Shown piece after piece: positions 2,580 to 26,178 of a stretch of DNA of 33,432 nt. Numbering within the stretch: the stretch's first letter is position 1; every line of letters begins with the position of its first letter. This DNA is from Candidatus Hydrogenedentota bacterium (GTDB taxonomy: Bacteria > Hydrogenedentota > Hydrogenedentia > Hydrogenedentales > SLHB01), in assembly GCA_045863295.1 (NCBI GenBank), contig BTWA01000029.1, positions 48,835-82,266 on the forward strand. The letters run 5' to 3'. Both the position numbers and the translations under genes were made by a program. The notes under the pieces were generated by a model, which did no database searches, was not told where the DNA came from, and worked only from the letters and a program-made list of their open reading frames with translations.

Positions 2580-3206
2580 ATGAAAGTGAAAGAAGAATGG
2601 TGGCAAAAAGGGTCCGCCATCGTATCGAACTTGCCGACAGGCCACGACGACAAAGGCAATCTGGAGTATTTTGGCGGGCATTGCGTTTGCGAATCCGTTC
2701 CGGCGCGTGTCGCGCCGTTGCTGGTCAATGCGCGGCGGTTGTGGTTTGCGTTGGCAGAAATCGTGCTCAGCGAGCCACATGGGCGATTTGCTGAAGCCTA
2801 TCAGGTGCTTTGCGATGCAGACCCGAATCTGTCGCTGCGTAAGGAATTCGGATCGGCAATCGATCCCGTTCAACAAGACGCCGAGCAACAGACCGCCGTA
2901 TCCGATCCCGTCGAACCCATTTGCTCTATTCGTGAATCCGAAATCGACATCGGCGACTACGTCTATGTATTCAAAGAGTCGGGAGGCCCTGTGTGTTGCA
3001 AGTCGGTCGAATGGGTCCGATACAAAGTACTCAAGAAGCGTGTCGAGTACGTTGATGGGAGTGCCGGAAAGTACGAGTTTCTTCTTGATAACAATTACGG
3101 CAATCATTGGCGCGGCCTTGAAGGCGTTTACACGCCTGCCATGGCCAAGCGTCTTGTTGCCCAGTGGGCGGACGAATTCTTCACGTCCGAAGCGGAGGGC
3201 AAATAG
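2580..3206 (+). CDS. Hypothetical protein
   Basis: ATG at 2580 follows GAGAGG. The longer 2508 start lies inside the hairpin. Confidence 0.65.
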   Translation: MKVKEEWWQKGSAIVSNLPTGHDDKGNLEYFGGHCVCESVPARVAPLLVNARRLWFALAEIVLSEPHGRFAEAYQVLCDADPNLSLRKEFGSAIDPVQQDAEQQTAVSDPVEPICSIRESEIDIGDYVYVFKESGGPVCCKSVEWVRYKVLKKRVEYVDGSAGKYEFLLDNNYGNHWRGLEGVYTPAMAKRLVAQWADEFFTSEAEGK

Positions 3207-3208
3207 CC

Positions 3209-5158
3209 ATGTTCCTTCGCAAAGTCCGCATCCAAAATTTCTGCGGAGTGGAGCACCTTGAAGTTTCGTTCCGCTCGCAATCCTCCATCGTGATGGGGTT
3301 CAACCGTCAGGGCAAAACAACCCTGATGAACGCCATTCGCTATGCCTTTTTCGGGGAGTGCTACGACGAGGAAGGCGTCAAGCAAAAGCAAGACGATCTG
3401 ATCGGGCGATGGGACAAAACCGCGCTTATCTACATTGAGTTTGAACGATCCGGGGAACCATACCGCTACACGGTGAGCCTGGGCAATGGTGGTGCTCAAT
3501 GTGATTTACATGGCCGAAACAACTCGCACAAGTCTTTCACCCCTACAAACGCCAGCCGGTTCTTCTCGGACCTGTTTGAATTCGACATGGCCCATGCCCG
3601 GATCGCCGCGTTCTCGAATGAAATCGTGAAAGGCGACATTACGGAATTCGTTTCCCGGTTTGTGAGCATTGTCACACCGGAGGAAGTCAAGCAGTTTGCG
3701 GGGCCGAACTGGGCCAAATTGAACGACTGGTGCAAAGAGAATGCCGTAACTATTACCGATGTCGCGCACATCGGGGCGAAGGCCCGTGAGTTTCGTACCG
3801 TGTCGAATCGTGAGGCCGGCAAAGCCAAGGCGCGACTGGAAGAAATCGGCACCTGCATTGCGCCTACGTCGAAGGACGGCACGCGCATTTTGACGGCGGA
3901 TGATCGCCCGGCCATTGAGACGGCGGTCAAGAATCTGGAAGCGCAACTGGAAGAATTGAACCGGGAGTTTGGCGCAGCCACGGCCGTCAAGATCGATACG
4001 AAGAAGGTCACTGCTGCAAAGGCCGCGCTGGCCGGGGCCGAATCCGAGCGCGATTCGGTGAAGAAAGTCCTTGACGAATACGACGAGGGCATTACCTCTG
4101 TCGAGTCCGAAATCAAGGTCATGACCAGTAACCAAAGCCGCGCACATGGTGAAATGTCCGGCTGGCAAGCCAAGCGCGACGTGATCGAATCGGAAATCGA
4201 CCGCATGAAGGGGCTTTCCCATTGCCCCACATGTACAGCCGAATGGACGCTTGATCGGCTTGAGGCCGCAACCAAAACCCTGCGAATCGAGGCCGACAAG
4301 GCCGCGCAGGAAATCGCGGGCTACCAGTCTACCTTGGCGGACATCGGCAAGGAGCTCGCCAAGAAACACAAGCGCCTAGACCAACTTCGCACGCTCCGGG
4401 CCGACCACGAGCCAAAGTACAAAGCGCTTGTGGACAAGGTCTCCGAATTGAAGGCCCAGGCGCGTTTGATGGGTATTCCGGTAGGTGGCGCCGATCCCGT
4501 CCTGGCGCAAGCCGTCACGCGCAAGCCGGATGAAATCGAAGCGCTGATCGAGCAGACCAAGGCCACGGTCCAAGAGGGCCGGGACAAACTCGCGGCGCTG
4601 TCGGCCTACCTCGACTACCAGCGGGTCATTACGGAAGTGGACCGTCACACGGCGGACTCTAAGTTTCTGGATTGGCTGGTGAAGTCCTTCGATAACGGTG
4701 AATTTCAGTCCAAGCAATCCGGCAGCGGCCTCGATGATGTCGTGAAACGATGCAACTCGATCCTGTCTGTCTTTGACCTTGAACTGAAAGTGGCATCCTC
4801 GAACAAGAAAAGCGTTATCCACTTCCTGGACCGTCTTCAGGACAATCCGCCGTGGTTGCCCATCACGAAGGCGAGCCGGTCCGCTCGCATGAAGATTCAA
4901 TTCGCATTGTCGCTCGGCTTTGACGCGGGCTGGCTGCGCTTGATGGATGACTCGGAATCCATCGAGGCGAAGTACAAGCAATCCCTCCTGGACCTCATGA
5001 AATCGCTCTGTGGCAAACAGGGCAGCACCATCGTTTCCGGTGTGGTCACAAACGGACTCGTGCCCGATTTGGAAAAACTCAATAAGGCATTTAATCCGGT
5101 AGGGGTCTACTGGGTTCAGGCAGTGAATTCGGAGTCGGCACAGGCGGCGGTCGCCTGA
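3209..5158 (+). CDS. Rad50/SbcC-like SMC-type AAA ATPase with coiled coil and zinc hook
   Basis: MFLRKVRIQNF start, Walker A GFNRQGKTT, central CPTC hook within the coiled coil, Walker B LRLMDDSE, SD GGAGG. Confidence 0.85.
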   Translation: MFLRKVRIQNFCGVEHLEVSFRSQSSIVMGFNRQGKTTLMNAIRYAFFGECYDEEGVKQKQDDLIGRWDKTALIYIEFERSGEPYRYTVSLGNGGAQCDLHGRNNSHKSFTPTNASRFFSDLFEFDMAHARIAAFSNEIVKGDITEFVSRFVSIVTPEEVKQFAGPNWAKLNDWCKENAVTITDVAHIGAKAREFRTVSNREAGKAKARLEEIGTCIAPTSKDGTRILTADDRPAIETAVKNLEAQLEELNREFGAATAVKIDTKKVTAAKAALAGAESERDSVKKVLDEYDEGITSVESEIKVMTSNQSRAHGEMSGWQAKRDVIESEIDRMKGLSHCPTCTAEWTLDRLEAATKTLRIEADKAAQEIAGYQSTLADIGKELAKKHKRLDQLRTLRADHEPKYKALVDKVSELKAQARLMGIPVGGADPVLAQAVTRKPDEIEALIEQTKATVQEGRDKLAALSAYLDYQRVITEVDRHTADSKFLDWLVKSFDNGEFQSKQSGSGLDDVVKRCNSILSVFDLELKVASSNKKSVIHFLDRLQDNPPWLPITKASRSARMKIQFALSLGFDAGWLRLMDDSESIEAKYKQSLLDLMKSLCGKQGSTIVSGVVTNGLVPDLEKLNKAFNPVGVYWVQAVNSESAQAAVA

Positions 5159-6079: not shown

Positions 6080-6117
6080 ATGGGCCGTGGCCCCGAGGCA
6101 CGTAAAAGTATCGGGGC
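6080..6117 (+). ncRNA. Pseudoknot-type RNA motif, copy 2
   Basis: P1 ATGGGCC(6080-86)/GGCACGT(6097-6103, one mismatch); loop GTGGCCCCGA; GCCCCGA pairs with TCGGGGC(6111-17). Confidence 0.6.
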
Positions 6118-6623: not shown

Positions 6624-6665
6624 CCACGTTGTGGCCCCGTGGCGTGGGGAAGGAATTGACGGGGC
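6624..6665 (+). ncRNA. Pseudoknot-type RNA motif, copy 3
   Basis: P1 CCACGTT(6624-30)/GGCGTGG(6641-47); loop GTGGCCCCGT; pairs with ACGGGGC(6659-65). Confidence 0.65.
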
Positions 6666-15114: not shown

Positions 15115-15744
15115 ATGGCAAAAGCCGCCGAAAATAGCGACATTTTCGTGCTCAATCAGGACCGATTGTCGGCCCTGTTTGGTGTCACATCGCCAGCCGT
15201 CAAGAAGTGGCGGGACCAGTACGGGTGCCCGGTTCGTGCTGATGGGTTGTTCGATCTCCGCGTAGTCCTCCCGTGGTACGCCGCATGGCGTGACATGCGC
15301 GAAAAGGAAATGGCAGACGACACGGATCCGGAACTACGCCGCAAGCGTGCAGCCGAGGCCGACATCGCCGAATGGCGCCGCGACAAGTTGCGCCTTGAAC
15401 TCATGGACAAACATAGGACCATGGAGGTATTCACGGCTGTCGCTGCGCGGATCCGCCAGGCGGGCGAAATCCTTTTACGCGACTATGGGGACCGCGCCGC
15501 GTTGGTCGTGGATGAGGCGATTGACGACGCGGTGCAGATCGCCCGCCGAATGTTTTCCGTGGAGGCGTTGGCCGAAGCCGAAGCCAAAGCCGAAGCCGAG
15601 TCCGCGACGGATGAGTCAGAGCCGACTCCAGACAGGCCGAAGCGCAAAAGCAAGGCGAAGTCCGCGGCGAAAAAGCCAAAGGCCAAGAAGCAGTCGCCCG
15701 CGCCGGCGGGAACGCGCACGACAATTGCGGGGGCGCACCCATGA
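15115..15744 (+). CDS. Terminase small subunit (Nu1-like winged HTH)
   Basis: LNQ..LS.LFGVT..AV..W...GCP......FDL..V..WY motif, coiled coil; overlaps the TerL start. Confidence 0.85.
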   Translation: MAKAAENSDIFVLNQDRLSALFGVTSPAVKKWRDQYGCPVRADGLFDLRVVLPWYAAWRDMREKEMADDTDPELRRKRAAEADIAEWRRDKLRLELMDKHRTMEVFTAVAARIRQAGEILLRDYGDRAALVVDEAIDDAVQIARRMFSVEALAEAEAKAEAESATDESEPTPDRPKRKSKAKSAAKKPKAKKQSPAPAGTRTTIAGAHP

Positions 15745-17720
15745 GCCGCGCCGCGCTGGATATCAATACGCACATCGACGTATTTGCGGAACTTGGAGCG
15801 CAATCTAAAACTCCACGACGCCGGACCATTCGCCAGTTTGCTGAGCAAGAGATCGTGATCCCGAACGGCAAATATCAGGGCCGTCGCTTCCGGTGTGAGT
15901 ATCAGCCATACGCGGGCCTTGCGTTTGACCAGATGGATTCCGGCTTGTTCAAGACGCACGTATTTACCGGGCCGACGCAGAGCGGCAAGACAATGAGCAC
16001 GTTTTTGATCCCGCTCGTGCATTGCCTGTTTGAATTGCGCGAGACCGCCGTTGTCGGCGTTCCAAATCTGGACATGATTAGCGACAAGTGGAGTGAAGAT
16101 ATAAAGCCCGTCATTGAAGCGACGCGGTTTCGCGAATACCTACCACGCAAAGGGCGCGGGTCTCGCGGCGGCACTCCGCAACGTATTGACTTCTTGAACG
16201 GCGCGTCAATGCGATTCATGACCGGCGGCGGCGACGACAAGACGGCAGCGGCATTTACGGCGCGGAATTTGTACGTCACAGAAACCGACGGCATGGACGA
16301 GGCGGGCGAGACAAGCCGAGAGGCCGACCGTGTGAGCCAGTTGATCGGGCGAACCAGGGCGTTCGGCAACCTTGCCCGTATTTTCATGGAATGCACGGTT
16401 TCTACGCGACTAGGGCGTACATGGCGCGAGTACGAAGCAGGGACAGCCAGCACGATTGTTTTTCCGTGCGTGCATTGTGGCGAATATGTACGGCCTGAAC
16501 GCGAAGATTTTCACGGATGGGATCAGGCGGACAATGAGATCGACGCAGGTGAACGCGCTTATTTCGCGTGCCCAAAATGCGCCGGCGTAATTGACCAGGC
16601 CGCGCGCGAGCAAATGGTCAAGTTGTGCAGGCTAATACACAAAGGGCAAACGATATCCGCCGACGGCGTGATTGAAGGACCGCGACCTAAAACGCTCACG
16701 CTCGGTTTTCGTTGGAGCGCGTTCGAAAACATGTTTTTGACGCTCAAGGATTTGGCGAGCGATGCATACAAGGCGGCCACCAAGGAAGACACGGCAGACG
16801 CGGAGAACTCCGAAAAAGAACAGAAGCAATTCGTTTGGTGCGTGCCGTACGACCCGCCGAAGATCGACATATCCTCGTTGACCCTTGGCAATCTCATGAT
16901 GCGAATGCACCCCGAGGCGCGGGGTGTTGTACCCGATGCCGCGGAATTCATCGTTGGCGCGATAGACATAGGCCGCCACTACCTGCACTGGAAAATCGTG
17001 GCCGCTTGCCCGGACGGGCCGCGCATCGTCGATTATCTGATATCTGATTGCCCGTCAAATTTTCTTGGCACAGAAAAGGCCATTTTCAAGACGCTGGAAG
17101 AAATCCGCGAGTTGATGATCGCCGGGTGGCCGTGTGGCGACAGGATCGTTTATCCAGTCGTGACCCTTATAGATTCGGGCTGGATGGATGATGTTGTGTT
17201 CTCGTTTATCGAAAAGTACGGGCCGCCATTTTGGGCCTCGAAAGGGCTTGGGCAATCACTGGAAAGCCCGCAGCGGTACGTCGAGCCGAAGGCCACTGGC
17301 AACCTTGTGCAGCATGTCGGCAACCACTGGCATGTGGTCCACCTTGAGGAAAAGAACGTACTGCAGGTCCAAATGGACGCCGACCACTGGAAGCATTGGT
17401 TACAAGACGGCCTTGCTATCCCAGTTGGCCAACAGGGCGCGATCACGGTCTACTCGCAAGAAAACCCGAAGAACCACAGGCAATGGGCGGCGCACATGAC
17501 GAGCGAAAAATACTCGGAGAAATTCGATCCGGGGCGCGGCTGGATCGGCAAGTGGGAAAAGACTTCGCAGAAACGCCATAACCACTGGCTGGACTGTGGG
17601 TACATGTCCGGGGTGGCTTTGGAATTGGCACGGCTAATGTTGGCCGCGCGCGGGCGGCGTGCGCCCGTTGCGGCTGCTGGGGTGGATAGTGGCGACGATT
17701 CGTTCGTTGCAAGGAGATAA
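15741..17720 (+). CDS. Terminase large subunit, lambda gpA family
   Basis: Walker A GPTQSGKT, CVHC/CPKC zinc ribbon, nuclease GAIDIG, IDSG and NHWLDC motifs. Confidence 0.93.
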   Translation: MSRAALDINTHIDVFAELGAQSKTPRRRTIRQFAEQEIVIPNGKYQGRRFRCEYQPYAGLAFDQMDSGLFKTHVFTGPTQSGKTMSTFLIPLVHCLFELRETAVVGVPNLDMISDKWSEDIKPVIEATRFREYLPRKGRGSRGGTPQRIDFLNGASMRFMTGGGDDKTAAAFTARNLYVTETDGMDEAGETSREADRVSQLIGRTRAFGNLARIFMECTVSTRLGRTWREYEAGTASTIVFPCVHCGEYVRPEREDFHGWDQADNEIDAGERAYFACPKCAGVIDQAAREQMVKLCRLIHKGQTISADGVIEGPRPKTLTLGFRWSAFENMFLTLKDLASDAYKAATKEDTADAENSEKEQKQFVWCVPYDPPKIDISSLTLGNLMMRMHPEARGVVPDAAEFIVGAIDIGRHYLHWKIVAACPDGPRIVDYLISDCPSNFLGTEKAIFKTLEEIRELMIAGWPCGDRIVYPVVTLIDSGWMDDVVFSFIEKYGPPFWASKGLGQSLESPQRYVEPKATGNLVQHVGNHWHVVHLEEKNVLQVQMDADHWKHWLQDGLAIPVGQQGAITVYSQENPKNHRQWAAHMTSEKYSEKFDPGRGWIGKWEKTSQKRHNHWLDCGYMSGVALELARLMLAARGRRAPVAAAGVDSGDDSFVARR

Positions 17721-18420: not shown

Positions 18421-18471
18421 GCCCCGTGTATCGAAGCCATGACGGTTTCGACGCACGGGGCTTTTGTTTTT
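18421..18471 (+). terminator. Intrinsic terminator with long stem
   Basis: GCCCCGTGTATCGAAGCC-ATGAC-GGTTTCGACGCACGGGGC followed by TTTTGTTTTT. Confidence 0.8.
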
Positions 18472-18487
18472 GTCCAGAAAGGCACAA

Positions 18488-18790
18488 TTGGCAGCCACGT
18501 ACCTCGAAAGCACCGCGACGCTCGCACAGGCGCAGACGGCTTACAAGGCCAACTGCATGTATGACCTTGAGGGCGATACTGACAAGTGCCGCATGTTCAT
18601 CAATGCGGTGCGAGTCCTGCAATTACTCCGCGCCGAAGAGTCACAGAAAGGCCCGGACCGCGTTCGAGAGGATTACCGCAAACTTGAGGGCGATCTGAAA
18701 CGCGCCACCGAGTGGCTTGCACAAAACGACCCATCCACGACAAGCACAGACGCCGTGCGATACATGAGCGTGGAGAACTTCCGCACATGA
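18488..18790 (+). CDS. Head-completion/adaptor candidate (gpW position)
   Basis: AGAAAGG plus TTG at 18488; small helical protein coupled to the portal start. Call rests on synteny. Confidence 0.55.
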   Translation: MAATYLESTATLAQAQTAYKANCMYDLEGDTDKCRMFINAVRVLQLLRAEESQKGPDRVREDYRKLEGDLKRATEWLAQNDPSTTSTDAVRYMSVENFRT

Positions 18791-20394
18791 ACCACCGCGA
18801 CCGCCAATACATGGAGAACGCTTGGCCGTCTCAGGAATTTTCTGAGGCGTACGAGCAAATCCGTGGCGATTTCGGCGCGGCCAAGAACAATCGATTTAAA
18901 CGCCGCTTGACCGGCTACTCTTCGCAGGGGTCTGGCGCGGATTACCACTACCGGAACGAGTCCGATTTCCTGCGGATCATGGAACGGGCTCGGGACATCG
19001 ACCGCAATGACCCAGTTGTGCCGCAAGGCATATCCCGTTTGATTGCGAACGTCTTCCAGGACGGGTTTAAATTAGACCCAAAGACCGGCGACGACAAGCT
19101 AGATAGCGACCTTGCGGCCCGATGGGAGTCATGGTCTACGGATCCGCTCCAGTGTCATTCCGGGGGTACGCTCGACTTCCACGAAATGGCCGCGCTGAAC
19201 GTCCGGCACATGATTGTGGACGGCGACATTTTCGCGGTACCACACGACGACGGGGCTATTGAGGCTGTCGAAGCGCACCGCTGCCGGACGCCGCGCAACA
19301 CCACGCGCAATGTCGTTCATGGTGTGTTGATGAACGAATTCAGGCGACCGCTTGAATACTGGTTTACCCGCGAAGACATCGATCCGAACCGGCAACTGGT
19401 CAAGGTGTCCGAGATAAAGTCGTTCAACGCGCTGGACTCAGACGGCAATCCGGCGGTCCTACATATCAAGAACCCGAAGCGGTTCACGCAGACGCGCGGG
19501 ATATCGGCGATGGCGCCGATTATGGACACCGCAGGCCAGTTTGACGATCTCTTTTTTGCGAAGCTCGTACAGGCCCAGGTGGCCTCGTGCATTGCGATTT
19601 TTCGCGAACGGTCATCGGATTTCGCAAGCAAGATAGCGGGGACCGCTTACGGCGCGACTTCGCAACAAACGCAATCCGACGGGTCCAGCCAAACCGTTAC
19701 CGAGTTAAAGCCCGGGCTTGAGATCGCGGGCGCACCCGGGGAGAAGCTCCAAGGCTTTTCGCCGTCGGTGCCTAACCCTGAATTTTTCACACACGCGACA
19801 CTGATCCTCACGTTCATCGCGATCAACTTTGATCTTCCAGTCGCCGTCCTGTTGCTCGACCCATCACAGACGAACTTCAGCGGGTGGCGCGGGGCAATGG
19901 ACCAAGCGCGGTTCGGATTTAGTCGCATCCAAAGGCAGGCCCGCAACAAGTACCACATCCCGGTCTACCGCTGGAAAGTGCGTCAGTGGGCCGCCGAGGA
20001 TCCCAGCATTGCACGGCGGCTGGATATGGCATTGAAGCACCGATGGATTTTGCCGTCGTGGGCCTACATCGAACCTGAGAAAGACGCGAAGGCCGACTCG
20101 CTGATGATCCGTGAGCGACTTGCCAGTCGCCGGTACGTGATTGGCCGGCGCGGGATGGACGCTGAGGACACCGACAAAGAGATTATCGAGGACAACGAGC
20201 GGTTCATCGTGCGTGCCATCGAGGCAGCAAATCGTATTACCGACGCACACCCTGACGCAGATGTCACGTGGCGCGATGTGGCATTCCTTGCGCCCGATTT
20301 GAAAACGAAGGACGCGCCGGGCCCGGTAGACGACGAACCGCAGGACAAACCCGCCACGCGCCAAACGGCGTCGGCGAACGGGAAACATAACTAA
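18787..20394 (+). CDS. Portal protein, lambda gpB family
   Basis: RARDIDRND, VDGDIF, HGV......RP..YW, QTRGIS..AP, D.SQTNFSG.R and W.YIEP.KD motifs. Confidence 0.92.
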   Translation: MNHRDRQYMENAWPSQEFSEAYEQIRGDFGAAKNNRFKRRLTGYSSQGSGADYHYRNESDFLRIMERARDIDRNDPVVPQGISRLIANVFQDGFKLDPKTGDDKLDSDLAARWESWSTDPLQCHSGGTLDFHEMAALNVRHMIVDGDIFAVPHDDGAIEAVEAHRCRTPRNTTRNVVHGVLMNEFRRPLEYWFTREDIDPNRQLVKVSEIKSFNALDSDGNPAVLHIKNPKRFTQTRGISAMAPIMDTAGQFDDLFFAKLVQAQVASCIAIFRERSSDFASKIAGTAYGATSQQTQSDGSSQTVTELKPGLEIAGAPGEKLQGFSPSVPNPEFFTHATLILTFIAINFDLPVAVLLLDPSQTNFSGWRGAMDQARFGFSRIQRQARNKYHIPVYRWKVRQWAAEDPSIARRLDMALKHRWILPSWAYIEPEKDAKADSLMIRERLASRRYVIGRRGMDAEDTDKEIIEDNERFIVRAIEAANRITDAHPDADVTWRDVAFLAPDLKTKDAPGPVDDEPQDKPATRQTASANGKHN

Positions 20395-21725
20395 TGGCAT
20401 CGGCAGAAATGACGTTGACGGTAAATATGCCGACTGATATCAGGCGGCTTGACCAGTATGCAGGCCCGTACGCGATTGAAGAATCGGCGATGCGCTCGAT
20501 CTGCGATTCGCTCAAGGCGATGAATTGGGGCGAACATTTTGCGGCCGCAGCACCCGCAGGCTCTGCTATCGGTTCGTATGAGAAATTCGGCGACGTGGCC
20601 GTAATCGATTTGGTCGGATCCATGACCAAGTACGGGTCCAGCTTCAGTGATCTGCGCCATGGCACCATCGGGGTGCAGCGTGCGGTAGCAAAGGCATCGC
20701 GCGACAAGGACGTTGCCACAATCATTTTGCGCATTGATTCACCCGGCGGATCGGTTTCTGGCACCGCCGATCTTGCAAACGAGGTTGCGCGGGCCGCGCA
20801 GAAAAAGCGGGTTATCGCGTACATCGAAGACATGGGCGCGTCCGCCGCTTATTGGGTGGCGTCACAGGCCAGCGAGATTGTTGCGAACGATACGGCCATC
20901 GTCGGAAGTATCGGCGTCTATACGTCGGTCACGGACTACAGTGTTGCGGCGGCCATGCAGGGAATCAAGGTCGAGAAGTTTGCCACAGGCAAATTCAAAG
21001 GCGCGGGCTTGCCCGGCACATCGTTGACCGAAGAACAGCGGGCAGACATTCAGGCACGGATCGAGGACATCCACGATCTATTTACCGGGGCTGTTTCACG
21101 CGGGCGTCGTATGTCCGCTGACAAGATTTCCGAAATCGCCGATGGACGTGTGTTTATCGGCGCGAAGGCCGTGGCAGTGGGGCTTGTAGACCGTATCGAC
21201 AGCCTTGAGTCACTGATCAACGGCGCAACCAAATCACCCAAAAAGCCGCAGGTTGCGGCCAATATAGGAGATCAAAACATGTCCGAGAACAAAACGGCGC
21301 AACCGGCCAGCTTTTCTGATTTGAAAGCGTGTCTGCCGGGCGCAACAAGCGATCAGATTTGCGGGTACCTTGAGCGCAATCTGACGCTCGACCAGGCACA
21401 GAGTGCGCACATGGAAGCGCAAGCCAAGGCAACCGCCGACGCAAAGGCCGCATTGGCCGCGAAGGACGCGGAGATCGCCGCGTTGAAAGAAGCCGCCGCG
21501 AAGAAGCCTGGCACGCAAGGGCTGGGCGATGATGCGTTGCGGGGCGAAGGCAAGGCCAAAAAAGACGAAGGCGGATCGGCAACCGACGAATGGAATGCCG
21601 CTGTAGCCGAGGCGGTGTCGAAGGGTAAGAGCCAAGCCGCTGCGATCCGTGCGCTCGTGCGCGACAACCCCAAATTACACCAGGCGTATCTGGCCGAAGC
21701 CAAAGCCAATTACGGTCGCCACTAA
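20394..21725 (+). CDS. S49 (SppA/gpC-like) head maturation protease with C-terminal scaffold
   Basis: ILRIDSPGGSV, GASAAYWVASQA, VGSIGV, G.FK and GRVFIG..A...GLVD motifs. Confidence 0.93.
   Translation: MASAEMTLTVNMPTDIRRLDQYAGPYAIEESAMRSICDSLKAMNWGEHFAAAAPAGSAIGSYEKFGDVAVIDLVGSMTKYGSSFSDLRHGTIGVQRAVAKASRDKDVATIILRIDSPGGSVSGTADLANEVARAAQKKRVIAYIEDMGASAAYWVASQASEIVANDTAIVGSIGVYTSVTDYSVAAAMQGIKVEKFATGKFKGAGLPGTSLTEEQRADIQARIEDIHDLFTGAVSRGRRMSADKISEIADGRVFIGAKAVAVGLVDRIDSLESLINGATKSPKKPQVAANIGDQNMSENKTAQPASFSDLKACLPGATSDQICGYLERNLTLDQAQSAHMEAQAKATADAKAALAAKDAEIAALKEAAAKKPGTQGLGDDALRGEGKAKKDEGGSATDEWNAAVAEAVSKGKSQAAAIRALVRDNPKLHQAYLAEAKANYGRH
21279..21725 (+). CDS. Nested in-frame scaffolding protein (Nu3-like), 148 aa
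   Basis: Internal SD TAGGAG 8 nt before the in-frame ATG at 21279; Ala/Lys-rich coiled coil. Confidence 0.7.
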   Translation: MSENKTAQPASFSDLKACLPGATSDQICGYLERNLTLDQAQSAHMEAQAKATADAKAALAAKDAEIAALKEAAAKKPGTQGLGDDALRGEGKAKKDEGGSATDEWNAAVAEAVSKGKSQAAAIRALVRDNPKLHQAYLAEAKANYGRH

Positions 21726-21764
21726 CCAAAACCGTGCGACATCGCACGAATTAGGAGCAATGAC

Positions 21765-22676
21765 ATGAGTCAACAGGTTGATGGCGGCACAAAGACGTTT
21801 GTCGCAAGTGCTGCCCTTGAAAAGTTTCGCCGAGTCCGCTTGGATTCGAACAATGAGCTTGCGTATGCAGGCGCATCCGATACGGACTGTATCGGTGTCA
21901 CGATTGCGAAAAACTTCGCAGCCGGTGATCAGATTGCCGTGTGGTTGCGGAACAAGGAAGGTACGGTAATTTGCACGTCTTCCGAGGCAATCGCAATCAC
22001 GGACACGCTGTACGCGGCAGCCGATGGAAAGGTCGCCACGACCGGCACGGTGCTGGTGGGTGAGCCATTAGAGGCGGTATCTGGTGCGGGCGACTATCTT
22101 GAAGTCGCGCTTGCCACGACCGCCGTGCTCGGCGCGATTGCGCGGACGGCGTTGACGCAGGACGATTTGAAGCCCTACGCAATTCCGTTGACGCTGTTTC
22201 GCGTGCATGATGCGTTGCAAACGAATCTACCTGGCACCGCGGCCACGGATGACCTCGCGGTTATCACCGGCACGATTGGATCCGATCCGCCTTCGATTCA
22301 GGGCGTTGACTTCGGTGGGACCACGACCACGGCGTATGCGCGGATTCAGTATCCGTTGCCGCCGGAGTATGTGGACGGTCAGACCGTGACGCTTCGCGTG
22401 AACGCGGGGATGTTGACGACGGTTTCTGACGGCACCTGCACGTTGGATGCAGTGGTCTACCGCAATGGCGCGGGTTCCGATATTTGCGCGACCGCGGCAC
22501 AGAGCATCAACTCGCTGACGTTTGCGGACAAGGATTTCACCATTACGCCGACCGCGTTGGTGGCCGGCGATTTGCTTGATATCCGTTTGGTTATCGCGGG
22601 TTCGGATACCGGCAATGCCGGTGTGATGATTCCGGAGATCGCGTCTGTCACGTTGCTGATGGACATCAAAGGCTAA
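21765..22676 (+). CDS. Capsid decoration/cement protein (DUF2190-like) with extra C-terminal beta-domain
   Basis: KTF.A..AL...RRV.L...IGV...G.....EAI.....Y.AADGKV pattern; gpD position; SD AGGAG. Confidence 0.7.
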   Translation: MSQQVDGGTKTFVASAALEKFRRVRLDSNNELAYAGASDTDCIGVTIAKNFAAGDQIAVWLRNKEGTVICTSSEAIAITDTLYAAADGKVATTGTVLVGEPLEAVSGAGDYLEVALATTAVLGAIARTALTQDDLKPYAIPLTLFRVHDALQTNLPGTAATDDLAVITGTIGSDPPSIQGVDFGGTTTTAYARIQYPLPPEYVDGQTVTLRVNAGMLTTVSDGTCTLDAVVYRNGAGSDICATAAQSINSLTFADKDFTITPTALVAGDLLDIRLVIAGSDTGNAGVMIPEIASVTLLMDIKG

Positions 22677-22710
22677 TCGCGCATCGCGACAGTTGAATAG
22701 AGAGTGAAAC

Positions 22711-22740
22711 GTTACCGGGCTTGCAGGCCACCGGTGATGG
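22711..22740 (+). repeat. Upstream arm of the inverted repeat bracketing the capsid gene
   Basis: GTTACCGG-GC-TTGCAGGCC-ACC-GGTGATGG is complementary to 23780-23806. Confidence 0.75.
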
Positions 22741-22813
22741 GCTGGTCTAGCGGACACCACAAAGAGCCGCAGTAGAGACGCGGTAGAGCGCGTCATGACA
22801 TGGAGAAGACCCC

Positions 22814-23779
22814 ATGTCCAGCCCAAGCACAAATGTTGATCTACGCCCGGATATTACCGGGAGCCTTGAAAAGTTTGACGTTCAAGCAAACGAAGCGGGC
22901 TATATCGCTTCCCGCGTGTTGCCTCCGAAAGATGTTGACACACAGAGCGGCACTTTTGGCGTGATCCCGATCAAGGAATTGCTGAAGCAAGCCAGCACGG
23001 AACGCGCATCGAACGGCCACTACAACAGGATCGGGTTTGAATTTACCGACGACAGTTGGGCCACGAAAGAAATCGGCCTTGAAGTGCGCGTCGATGAACG
23101 CAACAAGAACATGTACAGCCGCTACTTTGACGATCAGCTTGTGGCTGCGCGTCTCAGCCGCTCCACCGTCTTGAAGCGGTACGAAATGCTCGTGGCGGCC
23201 GCAATTTTCAACACCAATACGTGGACGCCGACCGCTGTATCCACCGAATGGAGCAACAATGCAAGCGGGGTGCCGATCACGGACGTTACGGCAGCCAAGA
23301 AGCGCGTACGCGCGGCGACCGGCATGTTGCCAAACGCGATCATCATGAACTGGATCGTGTTCGAAAACTTGCGCAACAACGCGCAGATCATTGACCGGAT
23401 CGAGTCCGGCGGCGCGGGACAGATGGCAAAGCCTGCCGATATCACCCGTGAAATGATCGCACGTTGTTTTGACTTGGAAGAGGTCATTGTCGCTGGCGGT
23501 ATGACCAACACCGCGAACGATGCGGACGTGGCCGTGCTGGCCGACATCTGGAGCAGCGAATACTGTGCTTTGGCGCGTGTCGCCCGCACGAACAACATCG
23601 AAGAGGCGTGCGTCGGGCGTACGTTCCATTGGACCGAAGACGGGTCCAGCATCGGCACGACTTTCGAGTCTTACGACGAGCCGCAGTCCCGCTCCATGAT
23701 CGTGCGCAATCGCATGGAAGTTCAGGCCAAGATTCTTTACACGGAATGCCTTGACCTGTTGAGCAACATCACAGCGTAA
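22814..23779 (+). CDS. Major capsid protein (lambda gpE-like, HK97 fold)
   Basis: 321 aa in canonical position. 'IASRVLP...V....G', 'W......PITDV.........TG..PN..IM' and 'GRTF.W' motifs; SD GGAG. Confidence 0.85.
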   Translation: MSSPSTNVDLRPDITGSLEKFDVQANEAGYIASRVLPPKDVDTQSGTFGVIPIKELLKQASTERASNGHYNRIGFEFTDDSWATKEIGLEVRVDERNKNMYSRYFDDQLVAARLSRSTVLKRYEMLVAAAIFNTNTWTPTAVSTEWSNNASGVPITDVTAAKKRVRAATGMLPNAIIMNWIVFENLRNNAQIIDRIESGGAGQMAKPADITREMIARCFDLEEVIVAGGMTNTANDADVAVLADIWSSEYCALARVARTNNIEEACVGRTFHWTEDGSSIGTTFESYDEPQSRSMIVRNRMEVQAKILYTECLDLLSNITA

Positions 23780-23806
23780 CCATCACCCGGCCTGCAAACC
23801 GGTGAC
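23780..23806 (+). repeat. Downstream arm of the inverted repeat bracketing the capsid gene
   Basis: CCATCACC-C-GGCCTGCAA-A-CCGGTGAC begins at the first base after the TAA. Confidence 0.75.
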
Positions 23807-23810
23807 TAGT

Positions 23811-23838
23811 AGCCGGGGAGGGTAAAACCTCCCCGGCT
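23811..23838 (+). terminator. Perfect 11-bp hairpin after the capsid gene (weak terminator or 3' stabiliser; no U-tract)
   Basis: AGCCGGGGAGG-GTAAAA-CCTCCCCGGCT. Confidence 0.6.
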
Positions 23839-23867
23839 TCCCAAGGAATCAAGCAGAGGATCCTGCA

Positions 23868-24239
23868 TTGTCCACTTTCGCCACACAGATGAGCGCACAG
23901 GTCATGCCGCAACTATTGGCGCAAATGGCCGAGACGATCACGTACGTGCGCACCGGCGCGTTCTCGCGTTCCATCGAGTGTGTCTTTTCTCCCAATGAAC
24001 AAGATCGCCGTGAACAATCCGACGGGCAATCGCTTGTCGAATCGGCGACCGTGTTGATTTGGAATGACGACACGAACGGCGTATCGGACCCGAACGTCAA
24101 GGCCGACACGATCACGCGCGGGTCCGATGTGTGGGCCGTGGCCGGTGTCACCAGTTACGCGGACGGCACCGCGCGCTTAGAAGTGCGCAGGGTATCGACA
24201 CTTTATACGGGGCGTGGCGGCACGCTGAAGGTGCGCTGA
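23868..24239 (+). CDS. Head-tail joining/closure protein (gpFII-like)
   Basis: About 120 aa beta-rich; ETITY...P....DTI......W.V pattern; synteny. Confidence 0.65.
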   Translation: MSTFATQMSAQVMPQLLAQMAETITYVRTGAFSRSIECVFSPNEQDRREQSDGQSLVESATVLIWNDDTNGVSDPNVKADTITRGSDVWAVAGVTSYADGTARLEVRRVSTLYTGRGGTLKVR

Positions 24240-24240
24240 T

Positions 24241-24759
24241 ATGCCAGCGCCTACGCCAGTTGGGGTTTTCAGTGGAGTCATTGATCTTGGCCGCGACATC
24301 GTGGCCGCGTCTGATACGTTCCAGGAAGCGACCGGGGCCGAAGACGCCGAAGAGGCAATGGCGTTTGTGTTCGCACACACCGACGAGGTGGCGAGCCGCG
24401 GCATTCCGTTTGCGGTTGTCTCAATTGTCCCCGCGCCGTTCTACCGACAGATCGCGGGCGGGTCAAAGCCTGAATTTATCGAAAGCGGCAAGCTGCTTTT
24501 GATTCTCGGCAATCCTGTTACCGACGGATATAGCACTACCGACGCGATGATCGAGCACTTCAATTTTGCGGGCAAGGTCATCGAAGAGATCGCGGCACTA
24601 TCCGGCACTCCAAACGGGGCGAGCGCGACGCAACATCTTGAGCTGGGCGGCGGCATCGATCTCGTCGATTACTGGCGCGTGGAAAAGGAAGAGCGAGTAA
24701 ACGCCGGTGATTATGCGTGCAGTGTGTGGCAGTTGAACTGGGGTTTTATGGGTGGCTGA
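24241..24759 (+). CDS. Putative tail terminator/neck protein
   Basis: Acidic 172 aa; synteny only. Confidence 0.5.
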   Translation: MPAPTPVGVFSGVIDLGRDIVAASDTFQEATGAEDAEEAMAFVFAHTDEVASRGIPFAVVSIVPAPFYRQIAGGSKPEFIESGKLLLILGNPVTDGYSTTDAMIEHFNFAGKVIEEIAALSGTPNGASATQHLELGGGIDLVDYWRVEKEERVNAGDYACSVWQLNWGFMGG

Positions 24760-25276
24760 CGCAATCAAAATAGTGCCAACGATCACCATACGGCGCGGGC
24801 CGCGCGGGATGGCCAAGGAATTCCGCGAGGCGCGTGAAGGCGGTATGCAGGCCATTGGTCAAATGTGGCACCGCGACATGTTGCCCGAGCACTTCACGGA
24901 CAGGGCAACGCGGCTCTACAAATACGCCGAGCGCACCGCGAAGTATAAAAAGCGCAAACAGAAAAAGTTTGGACACAAAACCCCGCTTGTATTTACCGGG
25001 CGAATGCGCGATGCGCTCATGGGGCTTGCGCAAATCCGGGCGTCATCCGAAAAAGTCCGCGTGTCCATGTCTGGCCCGCGTTGGTTGTCCGGCTTTATGT
25101 CGTTTCGCGGGCGGACCGGCACAGGCCCGGATATGAAGAAAGAGATCACGACAATCCGGCAAGACGAGGGCGAGACGCTCGCCATGGGATTGCACCGCTA
25201 CATCGTTCAACGGCTTGAAACGATGCGGCCAGAAAACAAAGTCATTTCCGGGGCCGATGGCTACCGGATCGAATAG
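24752..25276 (+). CDS. Putative tail completion/neck protein (basic, morphogenesis-type)
   Basis: Y..RK.K......PLV.TG.MR motif; synteny. Confidence 0.6.
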   Translation: MADAIKIVPTITIRRGPRGMAKEFREAREGGMQAIGQMWHRDMLPEHFTDRATRLYKYAERTAKYKKRKQKKFGHKTPLVFTGRMRDALMGLAQIRASSEKVRVSMSGPRWLSGFMSFRGRTGTGPDMKKEITTIRQDEGETLAMGLHRYIVQRLETMRPENKVISGADGYRIE

Positions 25277-25284
25277 GAGGCACC

Positions 25285-26178
25285 ATGGCAACGCGCTATG
25301 TTTTGGGCGGGATCAAGACGAACGTCGGGGAAATCGGCGGCATAACCGATGTCACGTTCGATAACGGTATACAGGCCGTGTTGAACGGGTCTGGAGGGGC
25401 TGTCGATAACACGTACGCCGCCATGCTCTATGCAGAACCTTTGCTTCGATTCACGTCTACCGACATCTTTGCGTGTCTCGGCCAGGCGGGGATCAGTGGC
25501 ACGTCATTGTCCTCGTGGATCGCCGCGTTCCAACTGGCAACCAACAAAGGCACACGGACCGGCACATGGCGCCAATTGACGGGCGCGAGCGCACTACTCG
25601 TGCCTGTATCCATTCAGGCCGCCCAGGGGCGAGAGGCCACGATTGAAATGGCGGTATACCCGATTGGCGACGCAACGAACGCGCCGGTGGGAATCAACAC
25701 GAGCGATCCAAGCGTGACCCAGGTATCGGCCAAAAAATACACGCTTGGGCCGCTTGAACTGAATACGGCGGCTATCGAAATCCAGTCGATCCGTATTGAT
25801 ATGAACTACCAGATCGAACGGCGGTCGCATTCCGGGCTTCCGTGGCCGACGCACGTCAACCTAAACATGCGTGCACCCAAAATCACATTCACGTCGATTG
25901 ACGCAGAGAAACTTGCCGCGGTATTCGGCACAAACGAAGTGGCCGAGACGATCACCGCGCTGGAAGTTTGGCTGTACAAAATGGCCGAGGGCGGCGCGGC
26001 CCGAGTGGCATTGGCAACGGAAGAGCATATCAAGTTTACGGGCACCGAAGGAATCGCGTACATGACATCCATGGGCGGATCGCGTGGCGGCGACGCGGTC
26101 TCTGAATACCAGTGCGATCTTGTCTATGACGGGTCCAATGCTGTGTTGGCGTTCGATACGACGGCGGCAATCGCGTAA
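25285..26178 (+). CDS. Putative major tail tube protein
   Basis: Strong SD AGGAGG; T/G/A-rich beta protein; precedes the chaperone and tape measure. Confidence 0.6.
   Translation: MATRYVLGGIKTNVGEIGGITDVTFDNGIQAVLNGSGGAVDNTYAAMLYAEPLLRFTSTDIFACLGQAGISGTSLSSWIAAFQLATNKGTRTGTWRQLTGASALLVPVSIQAAQGREATIEMAVYPIGDATNAPVGINTSDPSVTQVSAKKYTLGPLELNTAAIEIQSIRIDMNYQIERRSHSGLPWPTHVNLNMRAPKITFTSIDAEKLAAVFGTNEVAETITALEVWLYKMAEGGAARVALATEEHIKFTGTEGIAYMTSMGGSRGGDAVSEYQCDLVYDGSNAVLAFDTTAAIA

Follow-up and report, generated by a model that had tools for sequence, protein, structure and literature searches.

Tailed phages require capsid protein in hundreds of subunits where a few copies of the neighbouring proteins suffice, although these genes are usually transcribed as one long message, and, to our knowledge, how the capsid ratio is set has been established for only a few model phages. 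In bacterial precursor transcripts, the 16S and 23S rRNA are flanked by RNase III processing stems which are conserved and covarying. In phage T7, with its intercistronic RNase III hairpins, and in phage lambda, with its sib element, messages are cut at double-stranded elements located between genes, and the stems left over then stabilise or destabilise the neighbouring cistron. Pairing between the two ends of a single mRNA has been described for the B. subtilis hbs mRNA, in which 5'/3'-UTR pairing is reported to modulate RNase cleavage, the helix altering ribonuclease access and so mRNA stability (PMC5737220), and for the S. aureus icaR mRNA, in which the paired 5'- and 3'-UTRs constitute an RNase III substrate (PMC3868564). 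Our literature searches for processing of phage capsid mRNAs by flanking repeats gave nothing pertinent among the matches listed.

Here we describe a locus in which a phage major capsid protein (MCP) gene is enclosed by two complementary arms. All positions refer to the window, that is, the whole stretch of 33,432 nt of DNA that was analysed. The inverted repeat formed by the two arms is real and lineage-specific, and resides in two spacers, the only ones of appreciable length in the head module. This module is lambda-like and lies in a prophage-like region of a genome, probably that of a planctomycete, of 6.3 Mb with 57% G+C (Table 1). The MCP ORF matches the major head protein family phrog_1005 (E 4.8e-43), aligns to its homologues from residue 1, and terminates with a TAA codon at 23777-23779. 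The product of the preceding gene matches PF09956 Phage_cement_2 (E 2.6e-4, under the curated cut-off) and that of the following gene PF05354 Phage_attach (E 1.4e-3, likewise under the cut-off). Rfam covariance models yielded no match at E ≤ 1 between positions 21500 and 24500.

Table 1. Features of the capsid locus (window coordinates).
Feature	Position	Strand	Remarks
Upstream gene, 303 aa	21765..22676	+	weak cement/decoration-protein match
Arm 1 (5' arm)	22711..22740	+	in the 137-nt spacer from the cement-like gene to MCP
Likely MCP ribosome-binding site GGAGAAG	22802..22808	+	sequence reading; within the loop, 62 nt outside the helix
MCP gene	22814..23779	+	321 codons, enclosed by both arms
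Arm 2 (3' arm)	23780..23806	+	starts at the first base directly past the MCP stop codon
Local hairpin, 11 perfect pairs, 6-nt loop	23811..23838	+	inverted repeat and folds; 4 nt past arm 2
Downstream gene, 123 aa	23868..24239	+	TTG start after AGAGGA; weak head-tail attachment match

Complementary arms around the capsid gene

Arm 1 is preceded by the upstream stop codon at a distance of 34 nt and followed by the MCP start codon at a distance of 73 nt. Arm 2 represents an inverted copy of arm 1 at ∼25 of 30 positions, the arms being 30 and 27 nt long, respectively, with two small indels (2 nt and 1 nt) flanking the shared centre. A check of the sequence along with RNAcofold and RNAduplex reproduces the pairing that the original prediction had read from the letters: 25 pairs, one of them G-U, with an energy of -44.5 kcal/mol, arranged as stems of 8, 9 and 8 bp that are separated by internal loops of 2x1 and then 3x1. 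The middle stem of 9 bp is perfect, and the single G-U joins T22713 with G23804, one difference between the arms being a transition that leaves this G-U pair. The loop closed by the helix comprises 1039 nt (22741-23779) and contains the MCP ORF along with its leader and ribosome-binding site, in agreement with the ∼1.04 kb previously estimated to be looped out, and the claim that the 3' arm starts immediately after the stop codon is likewise borne out. Each arm can also fold locally with TGCA in the loop, as had been predicted, arm 1 into a hairpin of -12.4 kcal/mol with a UGCA tetraloop, and arm 2 into one of -7.6 kcal/mol with an 8-nt loop containing UGCA. Both arms are quasi-palindromic and follow the pattern TYACC(C)GG...TGCA...CCGGTGA.

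In folds of the whole message, all 25 pairs are part of the minimum free energy structure for transcripts of 1191, 1351 and 1701 nt, and the mean pair probability of the helix ranges from 0.93 to 0.96 in these three full-length folds. When the MCP ORF is held single-stranded, the helix retains 25 of 25 pairs at a pair probability of 0.99, and with a ribosome footprint covering the first 13 nt of arm 2 the outer 12 pairs persist. The long-range helix is more stable than the two local hairpins taken together by ∼25 kcal/mol, and the ribosome-binding site is located outside the helix in all folds. As far as computation goes, these results support the physical premise that a long-range helix may form. 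An icaR-type arrangement with 3' pairing to the Shine-Dalgarno sequence was considered and rejected, the helix covering 22711-22740 and the site being located at 22802-22808.

Several other known types of element were considered as well. A blastn-short search combined with a motif scan of the 6.3 Mb detected just two copies of the arms (C29:71549 and 72621), which rules out a REP- or MITE-like repeat spread over the genome; the motif scan gave 9 other loose matches elsewhere that are unrelated to the arms. An intrinsic terminator at either arm is ruled out by a consensus scan of positions 20000-26000, which yielded no such site. The letters after arm 1 read GGGCTGG and those after arm 2 TAGTAG, and between the arms the + strand contains no terminator-like sites other than weak consensus hits within coding sequence. 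The same scan did not call the hairpin at 23811-23838, which is followed by TTCCC instead of a T run and may serve as a 3' stabiliser or weak terminator of the capsid message. Finally, an invertible segment of the Hin/Gin/Cin type appears very unlikely, there being no equal-length crossover sites with an identical core (30 versus 27 nt, with indels).

Sequencing runs provide some cover of the locus. Run X6, an RNA library, gave one assembled contig of 379 nt over 22678-22827, which cannot show transcription, RNA ends or strand. In this variant contig the 3' end of the upstream gene is replaced by a different end, the spacer is kept and arm 1 is unchanged. Runs X2, X3 and X4 gave short, near-identical DNA contigs within or at the end of the MCP gene.

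The capsid locus in related phages

A search among 5.8 billion proteins returned 249 MCP homologues, the best being 53% identical. The original prediction had suggested looking for covarying arms near homologous capsid genes, and it was to be refuted by arms absent from related phages combined with transcript ends that do not map within them. On the first of these counts, no equivalent bracket around the MCP gene was found among 135 unique related loci, which constitutes weak evidence because their MCPs are only 35-52% identical. Strong pairing of the flanks is also not enriched in the set as a whole, a net cofold gain (defined below) of -15 kcal/mol or stronger being reached by 7 of 136 real flank pairs and by 17 of 544 cross-locus pairs. 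Closer relatives were sought along three further routes. A blastn 'distant' search of phage records with positions 21700-24300 gave no match, and a search of 60 related genomes with the MCP protein gave one remote match at 20% identity and no related prophage. A degenerate arm pattern run against viral_contigs produced 119 single chance matches, none of which adjoins a relative of the MCP, and two copies on one contig are absent among the matches listed. With no close relative found (best MCP identity 53%), the pairing is at present seen in the sequence of one phage alone.

A covarying hairpin that is absent from Rfam is located upstream of the MCP gene in 60 of the 135 relatives, as judged with a covariance model (R1) built from 34 relatives, these 34 training rows being counted among the 60. 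By eye, arm 1 was suspected to be a diverged copy of this hairpin. Both (i) are found in the same spacer, leading from a decoration-like gene to MCP, (ii) have an outer stem that is rich in GC, 8-10 bp long and similar in sequence (for example GTTACCCGG/CCGGGTGAC in L059), and (iii) have a palindromic tetraloop, which in the R1 hairpin is GGCC, or TGCA in L023. However, arm 1 has neither the T run nor the conserved internal loop of the R1 hairpin, and the R1 hairpin, unlike arm 1, has no partner behind MCP. With filters off, the model does not match either arm at E ≤ 10 in the 33432 nt or in the 1191-nt transcript. Since the covariance model thus gives no support, we keep the likeness as a resemblance only. 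The hairpin at 23811-23838 is matched weakly by model R1 (10.4 bits; E 0.3 in the window and 0.011 in the 1191 nt).

Chance, hairpin duplication and roles of the DNA

As a measure of pairing between the flanks we used the net cofold gain, that is, the energy of the paired 137-nt and 88-nt spacers minus that of their own folds. It amounts to -24.6 kcal/mol at the capsid locus, a value reached by 0 of 1000 dinucleotide shuffles (-7.6 ± 3.6, minimum -23.8) and by 2 of 1759 places with matching geometry picked at random from the host genome; allowing for ∼35 genes per window, this corresponds to a window-wide chance of ∼0.04. The gain is the strongest among the 35 genes of the window (runner-up -20.6) and also among the 136 MCP loci, and in a local alignment of the spacers counting Watson-Crick pairs only, the inverted orientation scores z = 3.4 versus z = 0.0 for the direct one. 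The strength of the excess over chance depends on the statistic chosen. With G-U pairs included, the Smith-Waterman pairing score is matched by 40 of 1000 shuffles, and RNAduplex applied to the whole spacers does no better than shuffles, 426 of 1000 reaching the real value, a measure which is uninformative because distant pairs get strung together. In a duplex scan seeded with 7-mers the arms rank about fourth among distinct pairs (10524 seeded pairs within 5 kb), the equal or better ones having -52.3, -49.2 and -48.8 kcal/mol. The arms escaped a blastn self-comparison that used gap penalties, since its scoring is too strict for two indels. In all, the arm pairing is probably not random, the case being short of overwhelming. 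That chance alone is at work, with GC-rich spacers in a genome of this composition and the best imperfect 25-bp complement picked from 33 kb, would agree with the two statistics that shuffles readily match, with the competing pairs within 5 kb, with the random genomic places and the window-wide figure derived from them, and with the conservation not found among the 135 distant relatives. We consider chance quite unlikely nonetheless: no shuffle attains the net gain when local folding is taken into account, the pair surpasses all other MCP loci and window genes, the arms lie entirely in spacers with arm 2 exactly abutting the stop codon, and both arms have a common quasi-palindromic architecture that random complements need not have.

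A shared architecture of this kind can also be read as the trace of an inverted duplication of a quasi-palindromic spacer hairpin. The phages of this group would then habitually copy hairpins between the spacers around MCP, in this case into inverted orientation behind the capsid gene, each copy acting locally, if at all, as a 5'/3' stabiliser or a pause site, and the long-range pairing would be incidental and occur rarely in vivo. Both arms are indeed quasi-palindromes able to fold locally, the 12 closest relatives commonly have hairpins on both sides of MCP, and related hairpin families occupy several spacers in some loci: in L092 and L020 the flanks of MCP give direct z values of 17.6 and 9.2, with repeat families across the locus, and in L188 a stretch of 26 nt of perfect complementarity flanking MCP belongs to a heptamer-repeat hairpin family. 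The weak local fold of arm 2 might likewise be expected from an inverted copy with G-U pairs. However, the energetic advantage of the long-range form holds even with the ORF unfolded, which makes some pairing hard to avoid if both arms share one RNA, and a neutral duplicate should decay, whereas ∼25 of 30 positions are kept here and the central 9 bp are perfect. In addition, as the arms are unmatched by the model of the pre-MCP hairpin, no source element for the duplication has been identified. We thus regard duplication as a serious competitor, if on the whole a somewhat unlikely one. A role of the DNA itself, with the arms serving as palindromic operator or activator sites or as crossover points for inverting or exchanging a capsid cassette, appears very unlikely. 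In its favour, each arm has a TGCA centre flanked by the inverted half-sites TYACC(C)GG and CCGGTGA, the next start codon follows each arm at a comparable distance (73 and 61 nt), the layout of the arms resembles Hin/Gin invertible segments, in which inverted quasi-palindromic sites lie ∼1 kb apart, and the window contains slightly more CCGGTGA copies than expected (11 versus 5.5 ± 2.4). Yet the half-sites are spaced differently (∼12 versus 8-9 nt), and this unequal spacing together with the two indels is at odds with both a rigid dimer site and a conservative site-specific crossover. Of the remaining 9 CCGGTGA copies most lie within coding sequence, these copies form no palindromic pairs, and a survey of the GGCCCCGNG motif and of the CCGGTGA half-sites in the window lends no support to a reading as DNA-binding sites. 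Inversion in particular would uncouple the capsid gene from the late transcript, the antisense ORFs at 22841-23629 and 22227-22832 have no family match, and Pfam detects no serine or tyrosine recombinase among the 41 ORFs of the window. The contigs of four runs contain no inversion joint, weak evidence given a sparse cover that includes none of arm 2 beyond 23791. The original prediction had rated DNA inversion as less likely, which, in view of the two indels and the lack of a site-specific recombinase among these ORFs, was a reasonable judgement.

A putative bracket for the capsid message and its known counterparts

Our preferred reading, which we put forward tentatively, is that the arms constitute an RNase III-type bracket or an end-pairing element for the capsid mRNA. 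The strand holding the arms would be transcribed within a late polycistronic message, and as soon as arm 2 is present on the RNA, the arms would form a helix of 25 bp interrupted by two small internal loops. This helix would seal off the entire capsid ORF together with its leader and ribosome-binding site, acting like the processing stems around rRNA in precursor transcripts. The host genome encodes an RNase III homologue (PF14622, G000:C3:284217-284588, 109.8 bits, above the cut-off), and this double-strand-specific endonuclease might cut inside the helix, releasing a discrete capsid mRNA with its 5' and 3' ends still base-paired. The strong hairpin at 23811-23838 would back up the 3' side, and the paired ends would be shielded from exonucleases, so that more capsid protein is made relative to the products of the neighbouring genes. 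What the analysis shows is the complementarity of the arms, its statistical excess, the thermodynamic dominance of the predicted helix and an RNase III gene in the host; co-transcription of the arms, formation of the helix in vivo, its cleavage and an effect on stability are inferred.

Beyond the conservation not found among the distant relatives, the weaker outcome of the cruder statistics and the window-wide figure of ∼0.04, three considerations weigh against a bracket: (i) arm 1 can fold on itself during the ∼1 kb of transcription that elapses before arm 2 exists, (ii) terminating ribosomes would melt the inner 8 bp again and again, and (iii) the same complementarity would arise from an inverted duplication of a spacer hairpin, with long-range pairing under no selection. 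Excision, stabilisation or circularisation of the capsid mRNA, or a switch between its local and long-range folds, as envisaged in the original prediction, are putative functions of the helix. The more far-reaching proposal of a working RNase III bracket, which excises a monocistronic capsid mRNA from the late polycistron, its two ends remaining paired, and yields a pseudo-circular, exonuclease-resistant message with the stoichiometry being set post-transcriptionally, we consider unlikely.

If true, a helix bracketing exactly the capsid cistron would provide a simple post-transcriptional answer to the question of how capsid protein is made in excess, with the principle of rRNA processing applied to an mRNA, and it would place a phage alongside the very few cases in bacteria of an mRNA whose own 5' and 3' ends pair. 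Should the pairing instead stem from hairpin duplication, the locus still exemplifies the spread of spacer hairpins among phages whose hosts seem to be planctomycetes. Being a single, unconserved instance, it carries modest weight.

Of the systems introduced above, the rRNA processing stems share with the arms a helix of more than 20 bp, small internal loops, an enclosed segment in the range of 1-3 kb and the presence of an RNase III gene in the host. Unlike those stems, the arms enclose a translated message, and their helix is a predicted one that was found in no relative. The elements of T7 and lambda sib are local hairpins of a few tens of nt, whereas the strands of the arm helix are 1039 nt apart. 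The pairing in icaR covers the Shine-Dalgarno region and represses translation (PMC3868564), whereas the arm helix leaves this site outside. The hbs mRNA shares with the arms a long-range helix joining leader and trailer of one mRNA; there the helix is 14 bp long and overlaps an RNase Y site, and the mRNA is a monocistronic one of the cell (PMC5737220), whereas the helix predicted here comprises 25 bp and would form within the polycistron of a phage.

Geometry and predicted stability of the arm helix

The two arms enclosing the major capsid protein (MCP) gene (Table) pair as the original prediction had it, in three segments of 8, 9 and 8 bp with one G-U pair (25 pairs, -44.5 kcal/mol); the claimed internal loops are likewise present, and the helix reads 8 bp, 2x1, 9 bp, 3x1, 8 bp. 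Arm 2 indeed starts at the first base past the MCP stop codon (TAA, 23777-23779), and the predicted loop of about 1.04 kb encloses 1039 nt with the leader, the ribosome-binding site (22802-22808) and the whole capsid ORF. The suggestion that each arm can instead form a local hairpin with TGCA in its loop also proved correct (-12.4 kcal/mol for arm 1, -7.6 kcal/mol for arm 2), since both arms have the quasi-palindromic form TYACC(C)GG...TGCA...CCGGTGA. Another local hairpin, 4 nt past arm 2, is far stronger than those of the arms, with 11 perfect pairs, and no T run was found after it.

All 25 pairs of the long-range helix recur in the minimum free energy structures of 1191-, 1351- and 1701-nt folds (mean pair probability 0.96, 0.96 and 0.93, respectively). 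Keeping the ribosome-binding site and ORF unpaired to mimic a polysome leaves the helix intact (25/25; probability 0.99), and its outer 12 pairs are kept in the fold when a terminating ribosome additionally blocks 13 nt of arm 2. Helix formation is clearly favoured in these calculations, which describe thermodynamics only and have kinetics, helicases and transcript boundaries outside their scope.

Gene layout and sequence variants

The assembly (6.3 Mb, 88 contigs) carries all recognisable genes of the window on the + strand, in the layout of a temperate phage. The host of the phage is probably a planctomycete, because the contigs bearing MCP homologues are labelled Planctomycetota, Pirellulales and similar. 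No other spacer in the head module proper (portal to tail genes) is as long as the two that flank MCP (137 and 88 nt). Elsewhere in the window, a terminator-like hairpin between terminase and portal overlaps the start of a small ORF, which may therefore be spurious. In addition, a GGCCCCG(T/A)G...CGGGGC hairpin occurs in three early-region spacers; this count is not above chance (3 reached by 37/100 shuffles), yet all three copies lie in spacers.

Features of the window and of distant MCP relatives (L-numbers denote loci of relatives)
Feature	Coordinates	Strand	Remarks
Early region			YqaJ exonuclease, RecT, Dam methylase, RusA, DUF5131
GGCCCCG(T/A)G...CGGGGC hairpin	1552-1560, 6089-6097, 6633-6641		spacers
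Large terminase gpA	15741-17720	+	lambda-type head module
Terminator-like hairpin	18421-18470	+	GCCCCGTG...CACGGGGC then TTTTGTTTTT
Small ORF	18426-18698		
Lambda-family portal	18712-20394	+	lambda-type head module
S49 head protease	20394-21725	+	lambda-type head module
303-aa gene	21765-22676	+	weak cement-protein match
Arm 1	22711-22740		
Major capsid protein (MCP)	22814-23779	+	phrog_1005, E 4.8e-43
Arm 2	23780-23806		
Hairpin past arm 2	23811-23838		
123-aa gene	23868-24239	+	weak head-tail attachment match
Pre-MCP hairpin of relatives	L038:2411-2460, L059:958-1007, L153:2222-2271, L085:2417-2466, L005:518-567	sense	alignment A2; 55 other loci
Heptamer-repeat hairpins	L092:1912-2088, 3053-3138, 4357-4461, 4959-5066		
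Heptamer-repeat hairpins	L020:477-581, 1579-1688, 2229-2366, 2722-2811, 3333-3450, 3962-4057		
Heptamer-repeat hairpins	L188:2371-2416, 3482-3581		

One sequencing run contains the entire window and is probably its source; four further runs were compared with the window as assembled contigs only. Three DNA runs contain short identical pieces inside the MCP gene, one of which ends at 23791. An RNA-library run yielded a 379-nt contig (depth 16) matching 22678-22827 with two changes; it reads A>G at 22709 and leaves arm 1 unchanged. In this contig 170 unrelated letters stand in place of the final 164 nt of the cement-like gene (22514-22678), and beyond them the contig matches the window again at 22479-22513. 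It is a mosaic variant with its junction at the gene/spacer boundary, and it bears on sequence only, not on transcription, ends or inversion.

Capsid flanks and a conserved hairpin in relatives

No DNA match to the capsid region was found among 50,697 phage records, and no related prophage in 60 related genomes; of 249 MCP homologues found, the best is 53% identical. We retrieved 184 loci whose MCP homologues are 34-52% identical, and both flanks are present in 161 of all loci gathered (135 unique). Judged by the cofold gain (energy of the two cofolded spacers minus the energies of their own folds) at 136 MCP loci, pairing between the flanks is no general feature of the family. Gain averages -6.9 for real pairs vs -6.4 for G+C-matched cross-locus pairs, and -15 or lower is reached by 7/136 real vs 17/544 cross-locus pairs. 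By alignment score, related flanks are modestly in excess (z > 2 in 16/136 inverted and 20/136 direct; p <= 0.05 in 17/135 under another scoring). In the strongest cases, L092, L020 and L188, the resemblance has another explanation: several structural-module spacers carry long hairpins of 7-nt tandem repeats, e.g., (AGTGGAG)n-loop-(CCACTNT)n, whose 3' heptamer run extends to the next start codon; the MCP flanks are alike there because both carry members of one hairpin family. These sequences show that spacer hairpins near the MCP gene are common and copied in this phage group, and they speak neither for nor against a bracket specific to the capsid gene.

Many relatives share a hairpin that lies 41-52 nt ahead of the MCP start, just past the stop of a decoration-like gene (13 nt past it in L038), with the consensus GTTSCCSGG-TGG-MGG-T[GGCC]ACC-AAA-GCCSGGSGAC and then a T run. 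Its outer stem of 10 bp and inner stem of 3 bp are separated by a conserved asymmetric internal loop (TGG-MGG / AAA), and its tetraloop is the palindrome GGCC. Across 34 sequences the 13 proposed pairs are 94.6% paired (67.0% in shuffles) with a covariation score of 0.74 (vs 0.215), neither value being equalled by any shuffle (0/500), and pairing falls to 31-52% when the partner strand is slid along. The frequent G-U pairs point to a hairpin acting as sense-strand RNA. A covariance model built from these hairpins, R1, matches the + strand just upstream of MCP in 37/100 and 23/35 unique loci, i.e., 60/135 including 34 training rows, all on the sense strand. There is no Rfam match. The hairpin resembles a terminator whose loop is conserved and stands, oddly, right before the most highly expressed gene. 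In the relatives bearing it, the next gene begins directly past the MCP stop and no partner of the hairpin was found behind MCP.

Arm 1 resembles this hairpin in lying in the same spacer and in sharing outer-stem letters with some members (L059), and the hairpin of L023 has the TGCA tetraloop of arm 1. Searched with model R1, neither the window nor the 1191-nt stretch gives a hit on either arm at E <= 10, and the suspected homology of arm 1 to the hairpin was not retained; the likeness is one of resemblance only. The best R1 match in the capsid spacers is the hairpin after arm 2 (23806-23846; a weak 10.4 bits), covering the outer stem and A-rich bulge without the inner stem-loop, and this hairpin may be a relocated, reduced copy of that of the relatives.

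Readings of the helix

How unusual the pairing appears varies with the statistic chosen. RNAduplex on whole spacers gives a value matched by 426/1000 shuffles, but chains remote pairs and has little power in such a test; a Smith-Waterman pairing score counting G-U is reached by 40/1000, and when the window is scanned for duplexes from 7-mer seeds, giving 10524 pairs no more than 5 kb apart, the arms rank about fourth among the distinct pairs. The cofold gain is physically more meaningful than plain duplex scores as it takes in competition from local folding. It amounts to -24.6 kcal/mol for the two MCP spacers, vs -7.6 +/- 3.6 in shuffles (0/1000 as strong), is reached at 2/1759 random host-genome places of the same geometry, and is the strongest both among 136 MCP loci and among 35 window genes treated alike. 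The runner-up of these genes (15115-15744; -20.6 kcal/mol) is consistent with chance when 35 genes are compared, as -20 is reached at 15/1759 random places. With a chance of about 0.001 per locus and 0.04 per window, we hold with moderate confidence that the complementarity is non-random, and consider a chance origin unlikely.

The main rival, possible though doubtful, is inverted duplication of a hairpin with incidental pairing of the arms. The arms are related inverted and not direct (z = 3.4 vs 0.0; Watson-Crick-only alignment of the spacers), and, as both are quasi-palindromic, the long-range complementarity would need no more than one spacer hairpin duplicated in inverted orientation. Judging from the folds, an inverted copy would have C-A mismatches where the local stem of arm 1 has G-U pairs, which would explain the weak local fold of arm 2. 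The whole genome holds no copies beyond these two (blastn-short and motif scan), a count that rules out a dispersed element; readings of the arms at the DNA level are improbable. The remaining probability falls to explanations other than duplication, chance, the DNA level and an RNA bracket around the capsid message.

It is this bracket that we tentatively regard as the single most likely reading. No terminator-like site was found separating the arms, and if both lay on one late transcript, a helix of 25 bp with an advantage of about 25 kcal/mol would be hard to avoid. Such a length of double-stranded RNA is generically cut by RNase III, and the host genome has a gene for this enzyme. Cleavage within the helix might then free a capsid message with paired ends, which the hairpin past arm 2 could back up.

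In two bacterial mRNAs, hbs (PMC5737220) and icaR (PMC3868564), pairing of the 5' and 3' ends is documented to affect nuclease access. In contrast to icaR, the ribosome-binding site of the capsid message stays free in the predicted folds. The layout is that of an rRNA-type processing stem, here on an mRNA, a likeness on which membership in that class cannot be claimed. The complementarity is real and neatly placed, but a single instance without conservation among the relatives compared.
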